The notes: generated by a model from the letters alone, not told the origin. A DNA stretch of 64,000 bases from Minisyncoccota bacterium (GCA_041674225.1 JBAYWG010000001.1:169401-233400); one strand, 5' to 3'; shown: positions 16,081 through 22,575, counted from the stretch's first letter. A program made the numbers and translations.

Positions 16081-16120
16081 TAATAAAAGAAAAAGCCGGT
16101 TCGAGATGAGTCGAACCGGC
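16081..16120 (-). terminator. Rho-independent terminator for the minus-strand Ubl/E1/JAB unit (10-bp perfect stem gccggttcga/tcgaaccggc followed by a T-run on the minus strand)
   Basis: Read directly from the sequence. The T-tract is present only in the minus orientation. Confidence 0.65.
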
Positions 16121-16151
16121 TAAGTAAGTTAAGCCTGTTTGTTGGTAAGGC

Positions 16152-16520
16152 TTAGTTACCGCGAATCTTTGAAAAGATCAACACCTGTGCTCCTTCTTCG
16201 AGCACCTCCTCAAAATTGGAGATTGTCTGTCCGTTCAAACGAACCTCTCCTTCAATTTTGTCTCGATAACCGGCAATTACCAGCGCCTGTCTGATTGTGG
16301 TTCCAGAGTCCACCTCGAAAGGTTTGATCTGTCCACCGGGGAAAGCACCGACTTTCACGTTGATTTTCTCAACTTGTGCCGGAGTCTCCTTTTTGGAAGT
16401 TGCTTTCTTTGCAGCGGGTTTCTTGGTGGTTGCTTTCTTTGTGGTTCCTTTTTTCATGGTTCTTTTCTTTTGGTTTGTTTGTTGTTTACAGATTTTTTTA
16501 ACTGAACGACGAACCCACAA
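16152..16520 (-). CDS. Ubiquitin-like beta-grasp (ThiS/MoaD-like) protein with a Lys/Thr/Ala-rich histone-H1-like N-terminal tail. The C-terminus ...IFSKIRGN is not Gly-Gly
   Basis: The C-terminal ~75 aa (INVKVGAFPGG...EVRLNGQTISNFEEVLEEGAQVLIFSKIRGN) follow the ThiS/MoaD pattern. The N-terminal tail is MKKGTTKKATTKKPAAKKATSKKETPAQ. The gene overlaps the 3' end of the E1 gene by 23 nt; an alternative start is at 16457 (MKKGTTKK). Confidence 0.6.
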   Translation of the reverse strand: MWVRRSVKKICKQQTNQKKRTMKKGTTKKATTKKPAAKKATSKKETPAQVEKINVKVGAFPGGQIKPFEVDSGTTIRQALVIAGYRDKIEGEVRLNGQTISNFEEVLEEGAQVLIFSKIRGN

Positions 16521-17205
16521 TCATCATGGGTTGAAGTGAGAATATCAATTCATGCTCGAACTCATCGGTCGGTTCTTTACCTTCCTTAAGTTTCTGCATT
16601 TTCTGATACCATCGGATGAATTGCCACACAGCAAATCCCGAGACCATTTCTGCCGTCGGACCTACTGTGATAGTTGCTCCGCAAGCGGAGACTTCAGCAA
16701 CGTCATCACCATACAGAGTTTTTTCCCATCCCGAAACTTCTACGGGACTTGATGGATTCACTGTATAGATACGACCACTATTGGAACCCATACGAGTCTC
16801 AATAATAACCTCAACGTGAGGTCTGTAACGAAGTGATCCTTTCCAGATTTCTTGTCGTGAAGACATTGTATCTGTCAGCAGGAAAACAATCTGACCGAGA
16901 CGTTGTGTTCCATCAACTCGTTCATTGTGCACCGAAACTTCGGTACCTGTCTGCACGAGAATAATATCTTTCAACGCCTCAACCTTGAGTTGTCCATTGT
17001 GATTGTTACCGAATATTTGGTTTGGGACGTTGTGGGGTTCCACTACATCCGGATCCCAAATGTGAATGTTACGGATACCGAGCTTCGCCAACGAAAGGGC
17101 GATTCTAGATCCTGTAGCACCCACACCTATGATATCGATACGTCTATCACCAAATTCTTGCGGTGAAAACACATCAAGGTGTCTTATTACGTCTAGTTCT
17201 GGCAT
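16498..17205 (-). CDS. Minimal E1-like ubiquitin-activating/ThiF-MoeB family adenylyltransferase (235 aa, no rhodanese or zinc-ribbon domain)
   Basis: IDIIGVGATGSRIALSLAKLGIRNIHIWDPDVVEPHNVPNQIFG combines the GxGxxG P-loop and the DxDxVExxN...Q motif of the ThiF/MoeB/E1 superfamily. Confidence 0.8.
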   Translation of the reverse strand: MPELDVIRHLDVFSPQEFGDRRIDIIGVGATGSRIALSLAKLGIRNIHIWDPDVVEPHNVPNQIFGNNHNGQLKVEALKDIILVQTGTEVSVHNERVDGTQRLGQIVFLLTDTMSSRQEIWKGSLRYRPHVEVIIETRMGSNSGRIYTVNPSSPVEVSGWEKTLYGDDVAEVSACGATITVGPTAEMVSGFAVWQFIRWYQKMQKLKEGKEPTDEFEHELIFSLQPMMIVGSSFS

Positions 17206-17237
17206 TCTCTCTCCTTCTAGTTTTTATTGGTTATATC

Positions 17238-18023
17238 TTAACGAAACCTTTTCCGGAAAAACCGGGGTTTATATTTTCCTCCAAAACCCTTGAAAAAGGG
17301 TGGTGAATACGGAGCGAACCGCAAAGCAGTAACTTTCCGTTTCATTTCCTCCCGAAGATCATTACGAATTTCATCCAGTTTGTCCCAGTCATCTATGTCT
17401 TCTTCTGTCCATTTCCATGGAACAGAATGAAAAGCGAAACCCTTCTCCCAGTCATAAATTCCGAAATTGATATCTCCTTGACGATTTAAGATACCGCGCA
17501 AGAAAAAATCAGTACCGAAACTTTGAAAGATTTTCATCTGATCATTATCTTGACCAGATGGGTAAGTTCCACCATTTCCATGTGAATGTCCCCAGAAGCG
17601 TATGTTGTTGAAGATTTCGTCACCACCTTCTTTCGAAAGGATTTCCATGACAAATTCTTGAAGAGCTTCTGGAAGAATTTCAGTATGGCCACCGCTCACA
17701 GTCTGAGGAAAGAGGAACACGTCATCGATGATGAAGTCTTCTCCTAGTCGCCGAGCAGTTCCAAGCCACCCCACTTCAATATTGATTGCACCTACAATAA
17801 CGTACATCTTGAAGAGGGCCAATGGACTGACAAATACAGTCGGAATATGGTGTTTCAACGTCAGAACTTCCAGAGTTGTATGGAAAACATCCGACGGAGC
17901 AAAAAATTGTCCGTCTGTCTCTGCGAATTCCCATTGGTAAGGCTGCGGAGGGGTTGGAGTATATGGGCGAGGAGCACCAACAATTTTTGCTGGCAGAGGG
18001 AGTTTAGTATTGTTTTTTTTCAT
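17238..18023 (-). CDS. JAB/JAMM (MPN+) metalloprotease-domain protein with a ~120-aa N-terminal extension
   Basis: Exact JAMM signature WGHSHGNGGTYPSGQD (HxHx7Sx2D) with an upstream acidic residue. 32 nt upstream of the E1 gene. Confidence 0.8.
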   Translation of the reverse strand: MKKNNTKLPLPAKIVGAPRPYTPTPPQPYQWEFAETDGQFFAPSDVFHTTLEVLTLKHHIPTVFVSPLALFKMYVIVGAINIEVGWLGTARRLGEDFIIDDVFLFPQTVSGGHTEILPEALQEFVMEILSKEGGDEIFNNIRFWGHSHGNGGTYPSGQDNDQMKIFQSFGTDFFLRGILNRQGDINFGIYDWEKGFAFHSVPWKWTEEDIDDWDKLDEIRNDLREEMKRKVTALRFAPYSPPFFKGFGGKYKPRFFRKRFR

Positions 18024-18112
18024 TTAGATTCGATTGTGAAGGTTCTTTTTATACTACTTCTGTAATTCTTTTATTATATTTTAAGGGTTTTGTCAATACC
18101 CCACCCCTTTTT

Positions 18113-18152
18113 ATCTAATATAAAAAACCGCTCTCAGAAACTCTGAGAGCGG
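18113..18152 (-). terminator. Rho-independent terminator downstream of the 543-aa gene (stem accgctctcag/ctgagagcggt, T-run on minus strand)
   Basis: Read directly from the sequence. Confidence 0.6.
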
Positions 18153-18167
18153 TTTGACTTAAAGCCA

Positions 18168-19799
18168 TTATTTGATAGCAAGACTGCCATCAAATTCCTT
18201 CAAGAATTCCAGGACCAGCTCGATTACTGTTTCCAGATCGAGTTCTCCAAGAAGTTCCGGCAATGTCGCATGAAGAGGACCTATGGGTAGCCCTCCATCC
18301 CACATTGGGTGCAAATGAGGAATATTAATATCCGGCTCCATTTCGTTACCGATCGGAGAAATACTAACTAATCCTTTCAACACGTTGCACAAAATACGAA
18401 ACGATCCGATGTTGTGAATTTTTTCGGTTGAAATGTCCCTGCTTTTGATAGATCTAGTATCAACAACGAAGACATCATCTCCCTTGAAAAAGACACCCGA
18501 GACTTCCGGCCAGGCACTCACCCTTTGGATACGTTCATTGAACAAATCAGTGGTCACAGCAGCAGGAACCTTTACAAGGTTTTGGATAAAAACGTTTTGC
18601 GCTATCATCATCTGATTGCGACGAATATTATTCATCAACTTTTTCAGTTCATTTTCCTTATCCTGCTTCTGTGCTGCTCGTTCATCTACGAACAGATTAC
18701 GGAAAGCCGAGATCACGACAGGATCTTTAAGCGGTGGCTTTTTTGGATAATCGATACTTTTATCAACAACAGGAAACTTCCTCAAAACAGTGAGGTAATC
18801 TCCGTAATGAATTTCGTTTATCGTTCCAATTGCTTTAATGGCAACAAGGATGGACGCTTCGAACTCATAATCCTTGAGTAAAGGAAGAATAACCTTTCCT
18901 TCCCCCATACAAAATTGATTCGTGTACCGATCCACATGAGGATGACCAAAAGTGTGTCTTTCATACTCAACTCGACGAGTGAGGTTTTTAAACACAGCAG
19001 GTGTTTCTTCACCACCTCCAAAGAGAAGCTTGATCTCAAATTGTCCAAATTCATGAAGAATTTTAGTTCCGGGATCAACAGCATACATGGTCTGTGTGGT
19101 GAAAATGATTCTTCTACCATCCACTCTAATGTTCTGAATCTCAGGAATATTCCAAAGAGTTTGAAGCACCTTATCAGCTTCTTCGTAAGCTTGCTGGTTG
19201 TCATCATTCTTTGATACCAAAGAAGAAGTCAAAACAATATCGTTTTGAATCAGCCGACGATTTTCTGTAAGCTGTTTTTGAAGATCAACATCTTTCTTGG
19301 ACTTAGGAATTTTGAATTTCCCATTCTTGATTTGAACAAGACTAGGCAAATCTCCCCTGATGAGATTCATTGCTTCTGTAAGAATGTGTTTATACACATC
19401 CACGTTCGGCTTATTACAGCAATTGTTAGAAGCATCGTAAAGCAAATACAGATTATTTTTTCCAACGAGTTCTGCAACAGCATAATTGCTTTCAGGATCC
19501 ACAATAACAATCCCTCTACCAGAAGGTTGATATAGAGTACGATTACATGTACGAACTCTTTGTTTCCACAACTCGTCTGGAAGCGTCAATTCGACCTTAT
19601 CACCATCAGCAGTACCGAAGACGTTAAGAAAAAATGTAGTTGAAAAACGACGTACATCTCTTTGTCTTCCTTGACAGTTGTACAGTTGAATTTCATTGAA
19701 CCCCAATATTTCCAATGCATCACCCAAAACATCTCGGGTAGCTGATTCAAAAGAATCCGCAACACGAAAATCCCAATTTGTTTTTTCTATTCTTATCAT
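18168..19799 (-). CDS. Large hypothetical protein (543 aa) with a central UBC-like E2 active-site signature (ERHTFGHPHVDRYTNQFCMGEG; compare canonical HPN[IV]x3-4GxIC) flanked by uncharacterised N- and C-terminal regions
   Basis: Same strand and GC regime as the Ubl/E1/JAB genes. The E2-like call is motif-level only. Confidence 0.45.
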   Translation of the reverse strand: MIRIEKTNWDFRVADSFESATRDVLGDALEILGFNEIQLYNCQGRQRDVRRFSTTFFLNVFGTADGDKVELTLPDELWKQRVRTCNRTLYQPSGRGIVIVDPESNYAVAELVGKNNLYLLYDASNNCCNKPNVDVYKHILTEAMNLIRGDLPSLVQIKNGKFKIPKSKKDVDLQKQLTENRRLIQNDIVLTSSLVSKNDDNQQAYEEADKVLQTLWNIPEIQNIRVDGRRIIFTTQTMYAVDPGTKILHEFGQFEIKLLFGGGEETPAVFKNLTRRVEYERHTFGHPHVDRYTNQFCMGEGKVILPLLKDYEFEASILVAIKAIGTINEIHYGDYLTVLRKFPVVDKSIDYPKKPPLKDPVVISAFRNLFVDERAAQKQDKENELKKLMNNIRRNQMMIAQNVFIQNLVKVPAAVTTDLFNERIQRVSAWPEVSGVFFKGDDVFVVDTRSIKSRDISTEKIHNIGSFRILCNVLKGLVSISPIGNEMEPDINIPHLHPMWDGGLPIGPLHATLPELLGELDLETVIELVLEFLKEFDGSLAIK

Positions 19800-19865
19800 T
19801 TTGTACTAGGTATAATTTTAAAACAACTTCTGGCAGAAGAATATAACACAAATCAAGACATGTCA

Positions 19866-19906
19866 ATTATTAAAATAAAAAGCCGCCACCCAACCAGGGT
19901 GGCGGC
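19866..19906 (-). terminator. Rho-independent terminator downstream of the FAD-oxidoreductase gene (10-bp stem gccgccaccc/gggtggcggc, T-run on minus strand)
   Basis: Read directly from the sequence. Confidence 0.65.
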
Positions 19907-19913
19907 ATACACA

Positions 19914-21467
19914 TCAGCGAGCGAGCTGATATTCCGCGCTTCTCATAACAACACCAAACAAAACATCTCCAATCCGATGAAGCATGCCAGGAATGACGAT
20001 GGCATTCGGGTTGTGAGGAGTTTCCAACACAGACCCAAAGCCGTAATAACCAGACAAAATCCGCTTCTTAGGATCAGGACTGTGTTTGACGATAAACTCT
20101 CCATCGTAATCAAACAAAGGACACTTATCTACAGGATCGTAGGTGCAGCCCATGCTTTTCATAACTTCCGGCGAATTACCATACCCAATGAGTGTCATGA
20201 TCTTCCCAAAGGGAATTTTTTCAACCTCAGAGTGCTCTTTACGAAAGACGTAGACTTCCTTTCCAGCAACTTCCCAACGATTGACTCCATAAAGAATTTT
20301 TCCATTGTGAAGCGCACGGTAGTAATCACTACGACTTCTCGCAAGATCTCCCTGAAAATCAACCAGATTAGGAAGGGATACATCCCGAAATAATCTGCGT
20401 GCAACTCCATCAACGACAACAGTCGTGTTTGGATTATAAACACATTCTTCAGGGTAGTGAGTAAGAACACGATAGTCCACAGCCGCACCTCGATCAATCA
20501 GATTATGAATCTGAAAAAGCATCTCTGCCGTTGAATTACCGAGTCCGACGAGGATAATTCTCTTACCCTCAACTTCATCGCGATCAATAACCTTCTGCCA
20601 ACGTGAACCGGCTTGGGCAGTGGTCGCTTCAGTAGTCATGCGACTTGGATCAGAAAGCGGTTTTGGTTTACCGAGACCAATCGTATTAATAACGATTGGA
20701 AAAGTTTCTTTTTTTCCATTAGCGAAATGAAGCACGTGCTTCAACTTACCAGGAACAATCTTGACCACCGTCTCCTTTTTAGAACGGTAAGCTAGATTAT
20801 CTAGGAACCGGCGAACTTCTTCACCATCTCCAGGTGCAGGCCGCAAGATTCTATCAAAGAATTGTAGCTGACGTGGATTATTCCTAGACAGTCCAAAGAC
20901 ATTGTTCTGACTCCAGATACCCAGCGGCTTAGACTTCTCATATATGGTAATGTTATTAAAACCAAGTTGTCTGAGCGCGTAAGTGATAAGAATCCCCGCA
21001 GCCCCATAACCGACAACGGCAATTGGAACTCGAGACAAGGAATTTGGAATAGTAGATTGGCTGACAAAAAAAGTTGCCGCACCCTCTCCTAAAAACTGTT
21101 CCGGACTCCGAAGACCGCTATTGGCAAGAGCCAAATCGATACGACGATTCTGCAAATGTTCACCTCGATATTCAGGAAGATTATCTTCACTGTCGATAAA
21201 AGGAAGTGCTTGGGCATAACCATTAAGAACTCCTCCAACATCACCGACTCGAAGAACCAATTCAGAAAAAAGGTTACCCCAACGTCCTGTGTTTGACATT
21301 TCTTGGACAGCATCAAGACTGAATCCTTTCTCGTCAATCCATCTTCTCAGAACACCCAGCGAAACCTTTTTCATAAAAGAATCTCCTAGGGTCTTGAGCT
21401 TTTCACAAGCAGTCACTAAGTCACGAGGAGTTCTTTTTGAACTCATTCTTTTTGAAGCGGTATTCAT
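19914..21467 (-). CDS. FAD/NAD(P)-binding oxidoreductase with two dinucleotide-binding motifs (flavin monooxygenase / pyridine-nucleotide-disulfide-oxidoreductase-like) and a ~150-aa N-terminal extension
   Basis: VPIAVVGYGAAGILITYALRQLGFNNITIYEKSKPLG (GxGxxG) and RIILVGLGNSTAEMLFQIHNL (GxGxxA) Rossmann motifs. Confidence 0.7.
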   Translation of the reverse strand: MNTASKRMSSKRTPRDLVTACEKLKTLGDSFMKKVSLGVLRRWIDEKGFSLDAVQEMSNTGRWGNLFSELVLRVGDVGGVLNGYAQALPFIDSEDNLPEYRGEHLQNRRIDLALANSGLRSPEQFLGEGAATFFVSQSTIPNSLSRVPIAVVGYGAAGILITYALRQLGFNNITIYEKSKPLGIWSQNNVFGLSRNNPRQLQFFDRILRPAPGDGEEVRRFLDNLAYRSKKETVVKIVPGKLKHVLHFANGKKETFPIVINTIGLGKPKPLSDPSRMTTEATTAQAGSRWQKVIDRDEVEGKRIILVGLGNSTAEMLFQIHNLIDRGAAVDYRVLTHYPEECVYNPNTTVVVDGVARRLFRDVSLPNLVDFQGDLARSRSDYYRALHNGKILYGVNRWEVAGKEVYVFRKEHSEVEKIPFGKIMTLIGYGNSPEVMKSMGCTYDPVDKCPLFDYDGEFIVKHSPDPKKRILSGYYGFGSVLETPHNPNAIVIPGMLHRIGDVLFGVVMRSAEYQLAR

Positions 21468-21535
21468 TTGTATGTAATATGGGTTTAAAATTGAACAGTA
21501 TTCGTTTTCGAAATTAACATTATTTTATGCTATTG

Positions 21536-22462
21536 TCAATTTTTTTGGAATTTAATAGTTTGTTCTGTCCAATCAAAATATGGCCAGCTCACAATATTAT
21601 TTCTAGCAAGAATTCTAGGACCCCAATATGATAAGAAGAAAGTTCCAGAGACAATAAGAAGTACAGCAGTAAGGATTACCACACGATTAGTTTTAGCATT
21701 AAGCCATTTTTCAAATCTACCTCCAGTTCCATAGAAAAGAATCAAAAACAATACTGCCATTACAATAATATTTCCAATCCCCTGAAGAACAAAAGCGAGG
21801 CTACCATAAAATGGATTATGAGTTGAGGCCGCGTATTCAAACATTTTTCTAAAAAGTGGAAAGGGACGACCAATTAAAAATGCACCTATAGTTGCACCCA
21901 TGATAAAAGGAGCGGCCCACACATGTTTTGCAAAAAACTTCGAGAATGGATTAGGAATTACTTTAATAGTTCCCAATCCCCAAATAATATAAGTGATTCC
22001 AATCAAGCAGAATACAACAACCGACTGCAAGAGTCGCACTGGCATTCCATTTGAAAGTTGCTCGGTTGAAAGCTGAGGAAGGTTCGAGCCAATCAAAGCA
22101 CCTATCCCGCCATAAAGCGCAGCTACAACAATTAGACCAAGTGACAAAAATCCTAAAGGCTTCAAGACACTTCCAGTTGATCTCTTTCCACTTGAAAGTG
22201 GAGCGATCGCACTAAAAGCACAAATGTTGCAAGCAGTGAAAGTTCCTGCCAAACCTGAAACAAAGGCAAATAATGCACCCATAATTATTCCAGTAATTGG
22301 AGTAGTCTTAGCATCATATCCAAGAAGATTATTAGCTATAGGATCTCCAAGATCACTATCCACAAATGAAGCTGACCAAAATACACTTATAAGAAAACCC
22401 AACAAAACGCTACCTACCACTATTAAAGTTTTTTGTTTTCGGCTTATATTAATTTGTTCCAT
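21536..22462 (-). CDS. Polytopic integral membrane protein (~8 TM) with a Cys pair inside a TM helix (AGTFTACNICAFSAIAPL), possibly DsbD/CcdA-like
   Basis: Hydrophobicity pattern. Last gene before tRNA-Gln. GC like the island. Confidence 0.45.
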   Translation of the reverse strand: MEQINISRKQKTLIVVGSVLLGFLISVFWSASFVDSDLGDPIANNLLGYDAKTTPITGIIMGALFAFVSGLAGTFTACNICAFSAIAPLSSGKRSTGSVLKPLGFLSLGLIVVAALYGGIGALIGSNLPQLSTEQLSNGMPVRLLQSVVVFCLIGITYIIWGLGTIKVIPNPFSKFFAKHVWAAPFIMGATIGAFLIGRPFPLFRKMFEYAASTHNPFYGSLAFVLQGIGNIIVMAVLFLILFYGTGGRFEKWLNAKTNRVVILTAVLLIVSGTFFLSYWGPRILARNNIVSWPYFDWTEQTIKFQKN

Positions 22463-22502
22463 ATTTCTAAACTACAATTTTAATATGAACATGTCAATTT
22501 TA

Positions 22503-22575
22503 GGTTGCCCGACAGGGATTCGAACCCCGATTAATGGCTCCAGAAACCACTGTCCTACCATTAGACGATCAGGCA
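22503..22575 (-). tRNA. tRNA-Gln (anticodon CUG)
   Basis: Hand-folded cloverleaf: acceptor UGCCUGA/UCGGGCA with the U1:A72 pair typical of bacterial tRNA-Gln, D-arm GUCU-AAUGGUA-GGAC, anticodon arm GUGGU-UUCUGGA-GCCAU, T-arm CGGGG-UUCGAAU-CCCUG. CCA not encoded. Confidence 0.8.

Follow-up and report, generated by a model that had tools for sequence, protein, structure and literature searches.

An island in a Minisyncoccota genome probably encodes a non-canonical ubiquitin-like conjugation cascade

A conserved Ubl/E1/E2-like/JAB cassette

In a 64,000-nucleotide stretch of DNA from a Minisyncoccota bacterium (GCA_041674225.1 JBAYWG010000001.1:169401-233400, analyzed over its full length and referred to hereafter as the window), six minus-strand genes between positions 16,152 and 22,462 are predicted to encode a ubiquitin-like protein (Ubl), a ThiF-like activating enzyme (E1), a JAMM-type peptidase (JAB), an E2-like protein of 543 amino acids (E2L), a flavoprotein and a membrane protein (Table 1). 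The group is best read as a self-contained ubiquitin-like conjugation cascade, a variant of prokaryotic Ubl conjugation from a family without known description, with a probability that we put at roughly 0.65. A non-canonical cassette of this kind had been proposed in an earlier reading of the same DNA (the sequence-only reading), and evidence from profiles, motifs and synteny now supports it. Five of the six genes form a conserved cassette, and their arrangement is not due to chance, because the cassette recurs in independent Patescibacteria loci; its core belongs to a large family common to phages and Melainabacteria.

Activating enzyme, peptidase and ubiquitin-like protein

The E1 matched Pfam ThiF (PF00899) with 63.1 bits, above the cut-off of 28.1, and is predicted to be a minimal, one-domain member of the ThiF/MoeB adenylyltransferase superfamily, probably forming a homodimer like ThiF or MoeB. 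This agrees with the earlier assignment of a 235-residue ThiF/MoeB-type E1 devoid of rhodanese and Zn ribbon, as no additional domain was detected. The protein contains exactly one cysteine (Cys175, 16681-16683), which was kept in 51 of 51 relatives and aligned on Cys184 of ThiF, in the crossover loop, and residues G27/G29/G32, D51, D53, N59, K74, D112 and R138 were conserved in 50-52 of 53 relatives. In PADLOC the protein matched the E1 half of Cap2 best (8e-15), and BubCD was a weak match of the E1 profile (6e-5). The top PDB matches of this profile, MccB and PaaA, act on peptides with a C-terminal Asn, the match covering the Rossmann part only.

The JAB protein carries a complete zinc site (E83...H146-x-H148-x7-S156-x2-D159) that was invariant in 50-52 of 52 relatives, so that the HxHx7Sx2D motif noticed earlier proved to be part of a full JAMM site. 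Its profile matched CSN5 (5.8e-5) and Rpn11 (9e-4) best among PDB entries, across the whole MPN domain, while the score against Pfam Prok-JAB (16.3 bits) was below the cut-off of 25. We therefore assign it, from sequence, as a putative JAMM/MPN+ metallopeptidase of the Rpn11/CSN5-like type.

The most likely start codon of the Ubl gene is the ATG at 16457, just past the E1 stop codon; this start gives a protein of 101 amino acids and would leave the two genes without overlap. A profile of 20 Ubl sequences matched ThiS (0.006), SAMP2 (0.013 and 0.017) and MoaD (0.024), followed by PF1061, RnfH and TtuB, with at least 10 of 13 matches being beta-grasp proteins. The beta-grasp signal suspected earlier was thus recovered, and the window protein appears to be ThiS/MoaD/SAMP-like. 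It ends in SKIRGN (Gly100 at 16158-16160, Asn101 at 16155-16157), as expected from the earlier remark that the C-terminal Gly-Gly was missing. The terminus was Gly-Asn instead of Gly-Gly throughout the family: RGN is the C-terminus of each of the five orthologues found first, GN was kept in both bacterial groups (with 0-2 extra residues after it in some sequences), and the Asn following the conserved C-terminal Gly was invariant in the Ubl genes of loci L001-L048 and L077-L086. In the profile alignments the Gly-Asn of the family falls on Gly-Gly, the Asn lying on the last Gly of ThiS and SAMP2.

Ahead of the beta-grasp domain, the window Ubl has a Lys-rich N-terminal tail with 12 Lys within its first 35 residues, encoded by two tandem 30-nucleotide repeats (70% identical; 16390-16449, KKATTKKPAAKKATSKK). 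This tail gave weak matches to histone H1-like and HC2 nucleoproteins; a similar one was present in the Ubl of L003 and none in the other Ubls.

The E2-like protein

No match to E2L was found in Pfam, NCBIfam, PADLOC or PHROGs, and a word-indexed search with the profile of its E2 domain returned no match either. While a word-indexed protein search yielded only two homologues, an exhaustive profile search recovered 696 representative homologues, with about 21 full-length orthologues. Across 24 aligned orthologues, His286 and Cys297 were invariant within the motif G-HPHV-x7-C-x-G, in agreement with the UBC-like HPHV...C signature first noticed in this protein, and distant members showed the form [AH]PH[VI]-x3-G-x2-C-[LMF]-G. 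The motif does sit, as previously remarked, inside a protein much larger than an E2.

Twelve of the 13 PDB sequence matches of the UBC-like domain profile were E2 enzymes, and HPHV..G..C aligned on HPNI..G..C86 of UBE2L3. When compared by hhalign with five eukaryotic E2s, the central UBC-like domain aligned in register (77.9% probability, E 1.8e-5), and the C-terminal domain reached 80.5% (E 1.3e-5) in an independent run; the N-domain, used as a negative control against the same E2s, gave 0.5%. The two UBC-like domains are paralogues (hhalign 100%, E 2e-45). Based on the profile-profile match, the PDB matches and the synteny with JAB and E1, the 543-residue protein is regarded as probably E2-like, the profile signal taken by itself being sub-threshold. 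The sequence-only reading had stated that the gene order should be considered coincidental if neither an E2 nor a beta-grasp signal were found; both were found, the former at this sub-threshold level.

A structure model derived from the 24-sequence alignment (pLDDT 84; a two-sequence alignment gave an unusable model, pLDDT 45) contained three alpha/beta modules with long helical hairpins between them, and its weak Foldseek matches included the UBC/RWD folds of Knl1, Ctf19, E2s, UFC1 and Atg10. No relatives of the N-domain were detectable (one PDB match at E 0.1; hhalign 0.2% to the E2 domain), and this module is a candidate for the binding of targets. In distant homologues (P0141-P0269) it is repeated one to five times, P0141 (1072 amino acids) being an example.

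Conservation in Patescibacteria and Melainabacteria

Loci were gathered from the genomic contexts of flavoprotein homologues and by an E1-anchored genome scan. Nine independent cassette loci were found in Patescibacteria (the window, L001, L002, L003, L005, L007, L008, L009 and L151), among which gene order and orientation varied and flanking genes differed; in the eight besides the window, the five genes recurred at 34-69% protein identity. A complete flavoprotein gene adjoined the cassette in seven of the nine, L007 having a fragment at the contig end and L008 being cut just past DUF6008, a family represented in six of the nine. The same five genes were present in L001, with the flavoprotein divergent; this locus was found through the sole close E2L relative in the indexed search, and its proteins shared 45% (Ubl), 69% (E1), 46% (JAB), 34% (E2L) and 53% (flavoprotein) identity with those of the window, the membrane proteins being unrelated. 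In L003, from a genome labelled Saccharibacteria, the cassette has a large serine recombinase gene (Resolvase/Recombinase/Zn_ribbon_recom; L003:4842-6512) some 1.5 kb upstream of it, a finding compatible with mobility.

The order E2L-JAB-E1 was identical in nearly all of the 50 genome loci from the E1-anchored scan, about 30 of which belong to Candidatus Obscuribacterales or Melainabacteria. In Melainabacteria, E2L is split into two genes: the first (about 650 amino acids) encodes an APHV..G.AC[LMF]G domain together with an N-domain in one or two copies, and the second (about 300 amino acids) encodes the second UBC-like domain, in which the Cys is not conserved (present in 7 of 11 proteins inspected). 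The Ubl gene lies upstream, and its product also has a C-terminal GN, after which 0-2 residues follow in some cases. Moreover, a ClpC/ClpB-type double-AAA+ gene (755-894 amino acids) was located 20-227 bp downstream of E1, on the same strand, in 25 Obscuribacterales/Melainabacteria loci, the canonical Clp_N domain being weak or absent in its products. This neighbor suggests that tagging by the Ubl may be coupled to an unfoldase. Downstream of the Clp-like gene of L015, on an Obscuribacterales chromosome, a radical-SAM gene was observed, together with genes for an aminotransferase-like protein and for a Ser/Thr kinase that has leucine-rich repeats (L015:13114-18012).

Relatives in viral contigs and phages

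Related E1s (25-51% identity) were found in 69 IMG/VR loci (L077-L145), a JAB gene adjoining E1 in 44 of them. Many of these loci encode an upstream protein of 450-590 amino acids with an HPH[IV]..C.G motif, several have small ORFs (open reading frames) ending in KGN or VGN after E1, and the full E2L-JAB-E1-Ubl(GN) set was present in several. In L083, the relative of the cassette adjoins genes for Sak4, DnaB, primase and RecJ, typical of phage replication. The best BFVD structural matches of the E2L model were unnamed viral proteins of 420-590 amino acids. Remote E1 relatives were also detected in cultured crAss-like, Flavobacterium and jumbo Xanthomonas/Erwinia phages (e.g. Xanthomonas phage PhiXhv-12, L150), and in Bacteroides phage DAC15 (NC_055832.1, L149) a JAMM motif occurs in gp050, the gene ahead of the E1 relative gp051. 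A tblastn search of GenBank phages with a minimal E2L (P0157) gave no match.

The flavoprotein and the membrane protein

The flavoprotein contains a GYGAAG motif and a second site, GLGNST, so the two dinucleotide-binding (Rossmann) sites described earlier were recovered. Its nearest solved relatives are flavin-containing monooxygenases (FMOs; 2gv8, 7e-7, mostly over the FAD-binding part), yet the FMO motif FxGxxxHxxx[YF] is absent from its sequence, and for this reason it is called only FMO-like. The protein has a conserved N-terminal extension of about 140 residues, and no invariant Cys column was found in the family alignment (50 sequences). It is an accessory specific to the Patescibacteria clade of the cassette, an extra component as the sequence-only reading had remarked, and could serve as effector, as target or as a partner in the chemistry. 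Extra domains occur in some homologues (P0049, of 754 amino acids, P0015, P0050, P0101 and P0109), and the C-terminal CMD/AhpD-like domain of P0049 gives a faint hint of peroxide or thiol redox chemistry. Contexts of homologues of at most 50% identity (metagenome, viral and two genome contexts) showed no link to the cassette or to DUF6008, their neighbors being uninformative, and an apparent ThiF and Pyr_redox fusion in P0108, considered as a Rosetta-stone link, was rejected as a mere Rossmann cross-match.

Membership of the membrane protein in the cassette is doubtful, because it is not homologous to the DUF6008 protein that occupies the same position elsewhere. It had been taken for a partner of the other five, but it had no family match and no counterpart in related loci, most of which carry DUF6008 instead. 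A Cys-Asn-Ile-Cys sequence lies inside one of its hydrophobic segments. The DUF6008 proteins (genes at L001:5933-6577, L002:7267-7833, L005:5411-5977 and L151:9610-10251) are rich in conserved His/Glu motifs (GHFxEHxxQ, ELLHLxGN, HLxEH and WHF), suggestive of a metal site.

Layout and composition of the locus

An ORF check of the window recovered all six genes at 16152-22462, exactly where they had been placed. Exact copies of window proteins are deposited under WC087_01005 and WC087_01010, both annotated as hypothetical, in a metagenome-assembled genome named 'Candidatus Paceibacterota bacterium', on a contig of 476 kb. The island is flanked by a D-Ala-D-Ala ligase-like gene on the opposite strand on one side and by tRNA-Gln on the other.

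The genes are co-directional, as the sequence-only reading had it, but the single tight or overlapping operon that it envisaged was not found: terminator-like hairpins follow the flavoprotein, E2L and Ubl genes. Because of these strong hairpins and of a TTGACA-type promoter-like site in front of E2L, the cassette is predicted to comprise at least three transcription units. A 38-nucleotide direct repeat (71% identical; 21506-21543 and 22464-22501) has one copy upstream of the flavoprotein gene and another upstream of the membrane-protein gene; it reads AAAATTGACA-N17-TA[AG]TTT on the minus strand and may represent a promoter-like element shared by the two genes.

The island had a guanine-plus-cytosine (GC) content of 41.2% with respect to 34.8% in the remainder of the window; the contrast is real but much smaller than the approximately 47% against 32% initially claimed. 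The cassette of L001 was also GC-richer than its flanks (49.7% vs. 45.2%). A repeat search revealed no att-like direct repeat of the tRNA-Gln 3' end flanking the island, and neither an integrase nor other phage genes were present among the ORFs of the island, which looks horizontally acquired and phage-related.

Table 1. Features of the island and of related loci (window coordinates unless a locus is named).
Feature	Position	Strand	Remarks
Ubl gene	16152..16457	minus	101 amino acids counted from ATG; mechanical ORF extends to TTG at 16520
E1 gene	16498..17205	minus	235 amino acids; ThiF family, one domain
JAB gene	17238..18023	minus	261 amino acids; predicted JAMM/MPN+ metallopeptidase
JAB HxHx7Sx2D motif	17547-17588	minus	Glu83 codon 17775-17777
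E2L gene	18168..19799	minus	543 amino acids
E2L N-domain	residues 1-160, 19320-19799	minus	followed by coiled coil; domain hidden Markov models
E2L UBC-like domain	residues 200-350, 18750-19202	minus	His286 18942-18944, Cys297 18909-18911
E2L Cys-less UBC-like paralogue	residues 399-543, 18171-18605	minus	after second coiled coil
Flavoprotein gene	19914..21467	minus	517 amino acids; FMO-like, two dinucleotide-binding sites
Membrane-protein gene	21536..22462	minus	308 amino acids; polytopic
tRNA-Gln(CTG)	22503..22575	minus	3' end abuts island; upstream boundary
Intrinsic-terminator-like hairpin	16094..16121	minus	11-bp stem, T tract; closes JAB-E1-Ubl unit
Terminator-like hairpin	18125..18155	minus	14-bp stem; between E2L and JAB genes
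Terminator hairpin	19882..19906	minus	10-bp stem, 9 GC pairs; after flavoprotein gene
Promoter-like site TTGACA-17-TATTCT	19838..19866	minus	in front of E2L
Clp-like gene, examples	L015:10772-13111; L028:10751-13333		among L013-L045

Comparison with known systems

Prokaryotic Ubl systems have been classified into sulfur carriers (4a-e), phage tail TAPI/TAPK (5) and classes 6a-e, and type II CBASS, Bil and Bub are now placed among them (PMC1779556, PMC11601596, PMC10557695, 10.1101/2022.03.31.486616). The earlier statement that the cassette matches no canonical version held, as it lacks the features that define CBASS, Bil, Bub and sulfur-carrier operons. In working, its content is most like Bil/class 6d. 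As in Bil types I and II (BilABCD; classes 6d/6c), Ubl, E2 (E2L in the cassette), JAMM and E1 are separate genes and there is no E3; the gene order Ubl-E2-JAB-E1 of Bil is found in the Melainabacteria relatives; and the Ubl resembles those of type II Bil, in which a conserved Gly is followed by extra C-terminal residues (PMC10557695). However, Bil has a multidomain E1 (IAD-AAD-CYS) and an E2 in which the conserved His comes after the Cys (PMC11601596, PMC10557695, PMC1779556), whereas the cassette E1 is a single domain of 235 residues and E2L has HPH before the Cys, is three to four times larger, and carries a second UBC-like domain besides its N-domain and coiled coils. Bil was ruled out because the E1 is not multidomain and the E2 His lies on the classical side of the Cys; no Bil proteins were among the listed PDB matches of the E1, E2 and JAB profiles.

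Type II CBASS Cap2/Cap3 (class 6b) shares an E1 that matches the E1 half of Cap2, a JAMM partner and a probably homodimeric E1, but it was discarded because the cassette has no E2-E1 fusion or CD-NTase. A cyclic-nucleotide effector is likewise missing, no nucleotidyltransferase was found in the window island or in annotated relatives, and the substrate would be the Ubl rather than a nucleotidyltransferase tail. Bub systems are characterized by a DUF6527 serine protease, Cys-less E1 and E2 acting via oxyesters, and Ubl-E2, JAB-E1 or E2-E1 fusions (PMC11601596). As neither a DUF6527 match nor fusions were found and E1 and E2L have both invariant catalytic Cys, Bub was ruled out as well. With PADLOC-DB 2.0, only E1 gave a match (to the E1 half of Cap2 models), no meaningful match being obtained for JAB, E2L, Ubl, the flavoprotein or the membrane protein.

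Sulfur-carrier operons (ThiS-ThiF, QbsCDE and CysO-Mec; 4a-e) resemble the cassette in their Ubl (that of the cassette appears to be ThiS-like), ThiF-like E1 with a Cys at the C184 position and JAMM gene, and the quinolobactin cluster also in having an oxidoreductase nearby. Class 4 was ruled out because rhodanese and sulfur-metabolism genes are missing: no rhodanese is attached to the E1, neither cysteine-synthase nor sulfur-assimilation nor siderophore Pfam families occurred among the neighbors in the annotated cassette loci, and an E2-like protein with an invariant Cys is added. The archaeal SAMP/UbaA/HvJAMM1 system is similar in its modifier (that of the cassette appears to be ThiS/MoaD-like, SAMP2 being among the best matches), small E1 and JAMM enzyme, that of the cassette being Rpn11/CSN5-like, but SAMP systems have no E2. 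The Caldiarchaeum Ub-E1-E2-RING-Rpn11 operon differs in having a small canonical E2, a RING E3 and Gly-Gly, where the cassette has Gly-Asn and no RING.

In eukaryotic E2-UEV (ubiquitin E2 variant) pairs such as Ubc13-Mms2, an active UBC is paired with a UBC-like partner in which the catalytic Cys is missing or not conserved. The cassette is similar, by analogy only, in combining a UBC-like domain with a paralogue of this kind, the two being parts of one protein in the window and products of neighboring genes in Melainabacteria; it differs in that no orthology is detectable and in that the Cys persists in most of the inspected second proteins of the split versions. No description of the cassette family, of DUF6008 or of a Clp-linked E1/E2/JAB operon was found in a literature search that also covered ubiquitin-like systems of Patescibacteria and crAss-like phages, and that most subscription journals lay outside.

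Proposed cascade and alternative explanations

In the proposed conjugation cascade, the JAMM peptidase would trim the 101-residue pro-Ubl, removing the Asn and exposing the Gly, by analogy with BilC and with the Rpn11 homologue of Caldiarchaeum, which processes a Ub precursor (PMC6043591). The one-domain E1, in which the required residues are present, would then adenylate the Ubl C-terminus and take it onto Cys175, from which the Ubl may pass as a thioester to Cys297 of E2L, a step suggested by motif, profile homology and synteny. The N-domain and the Cys-less, UEV-like domain of E2L might choose the acceptor without an E3, linking the Ubl by an isopeptide bond either to a target or to a second Ubl through the Lys-rich tail of the latter, and the same JAMM enzyme would remove the mark. 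The physiological role may lie in conflict, proteolysis control or redox.

Several observations weigh against this cascade. No target of conjugation is known, and the role of the flavoprotein, close homologues of which also occur without the cassette, is unexplained. The Ubl is no closer to the protein modifier SAMP2 than to the sulfur carriers ThiS and MoaD, and the alignment of its invariant terminal Asn on the last Gly of ThiS and SAMP2 has no explanation. To these are added the division into several transcription units and the Clp linkage, which is confined to one lineage and could be inherited synteny. It could be argued that the gene order is coincidental, or that the 543-residue protein is unrelated to the other three, since terminators separate the units and no curated family matches E2L; this is scarcely credible given that E2L, JAB and E1 keep the same order, at 25-70% identity, in viral contigs as well as in nearly all of 50 genome loci drawn from two distantly related groups of bacteria. 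A sulfur-carrier pathway would have the E1 adenylate the Ubl to form a thiocarboxylate, the flavoprotein oxidizing or using the sulfur, as proposed for QbsCDE/QbsK or CysO-Mec, and E2L acting as a scaffold. The best Ubl match is ThiS, Cys175 is at the position of ThiF Cys184, JAB trimming of carriers is known from class 4 operons (PMC1779556), and the FMOs nearest to the flavoprotein oxygenate soft nucleophiles. Nevertheless, the E1 has no fused rhodanese and a single Cys, no sulfurtransferase, cysteine synthase or biosynthetic gene was seen in annotated cassette loci, and an invariant HPH...Cys domain is needless for sulfur transfer. CPR (Candidate Phyla Radiation) genomes, in addition, have minimal biosynthesis, which counts against such a pathway. 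The flavoprotein is moreover confined to one clade, the core occurring without it in viral contigs and, accompanied by Clp, in Melainabacteria; the plain sulfur-carrier pathway, raised as an alternative from the outset, is accordingly judged improbable.

Characterized bacterial E1/E2/JAB systems are defense systems (PMC11601596, PMC10557695), and the earlier reading had pointed to anti-phage defense. In a Bil- or CBASS-type system the host would attach the Ubl to proteins of the phage and the flavoprotein would act as effector; the patchy, island-like distribution, the adjacent tRNA gene, the raised GC and the recombinase 1.5 kb away in one related locus are compatible with it. It is nonetheless rated as distinctly unlikely, given that PADLOC models matched only the generic E1 half of Cap2, that the features of Bil, Bub and CBASS are lacking, that no known defense regulators or neighboring defense genes were seen in annotated loci, and that the nearest outside relatives are in viral contigs, where they are frequent and, where checked, lie by replication genes. 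These viral relatives could instead indicate a phage-derived module serving a mobile element in host takeover, counter-defense or replication control, the island being a captured or remnant copy and any benefit to the cell secondary. The 69 IMG/VR loci, the adjacency to JAB in 44 and the several full sets speak for it, as do the replication genes beside the L083 relative, the viral BFVD matches and the remote E1s of cultured phages of the crAss-like and jumbo types, that of DAC15 having a JAMM-motif gene beside it. Set against this are the lack of other phage genes, integrase and att repeat in the window island, the restriction of the flavoprotein clade to cellular Patescibacteria contigs, the chromosomal location of the Melainabacteria copies with their Clp partner, and the possible misclassification of some IMG/VR contigs, so that a phage-derived module is an unlikely explanation. 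A conjugation cascade therefore is the reading that we retain.

Biological significance

Research on bacterial Ubl conjugation is recent, and just three of its pathway families (CBASS type II, Bil and Bub) have been elucidated; the cassette family would be a fourth. It would be set apart by a classical His-Pro-x...Cys E2 with an E2-variant partner, by a peptidase closest to Rpn11/CSN5, and by its frequent occurrence in viral contigs as opposed to known defense islands. A wider proposal, made tentatively and at somewhat less than even odds, is that phages, Patescibacteria and Melainabacteria carry a large undescribed ubiquitination-like family in which an HPx...Cys E2 and its E2-variant domain occur together with a one-domain E1, a Gly-Asn Ubl and an isopeptidase of the Rpn11/CSN5 type. 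If true, interchangeable partners such as the Clp-type unfoldase and the FMO-like flavoprotein would provide eukaryote-like tagging for unfolding, degradation or redox modification.

The Gly-Asn terminus is a simple biochemical puzzle open to test, and the invariant Asn may signal an activation chemistry other than that of Gly-Gly systems. The Clp-type unfoldase gene of one lineage makes ubiquitin-style degradation tagging in bacteria directly testable. Finally, an island of six kilobases with a flavoenzyme is unexpected in a tiny CPR genome, where almost every gene is under pressure, and the cassette may bear on the interactions of these episymbionts with their hosts or with phages.

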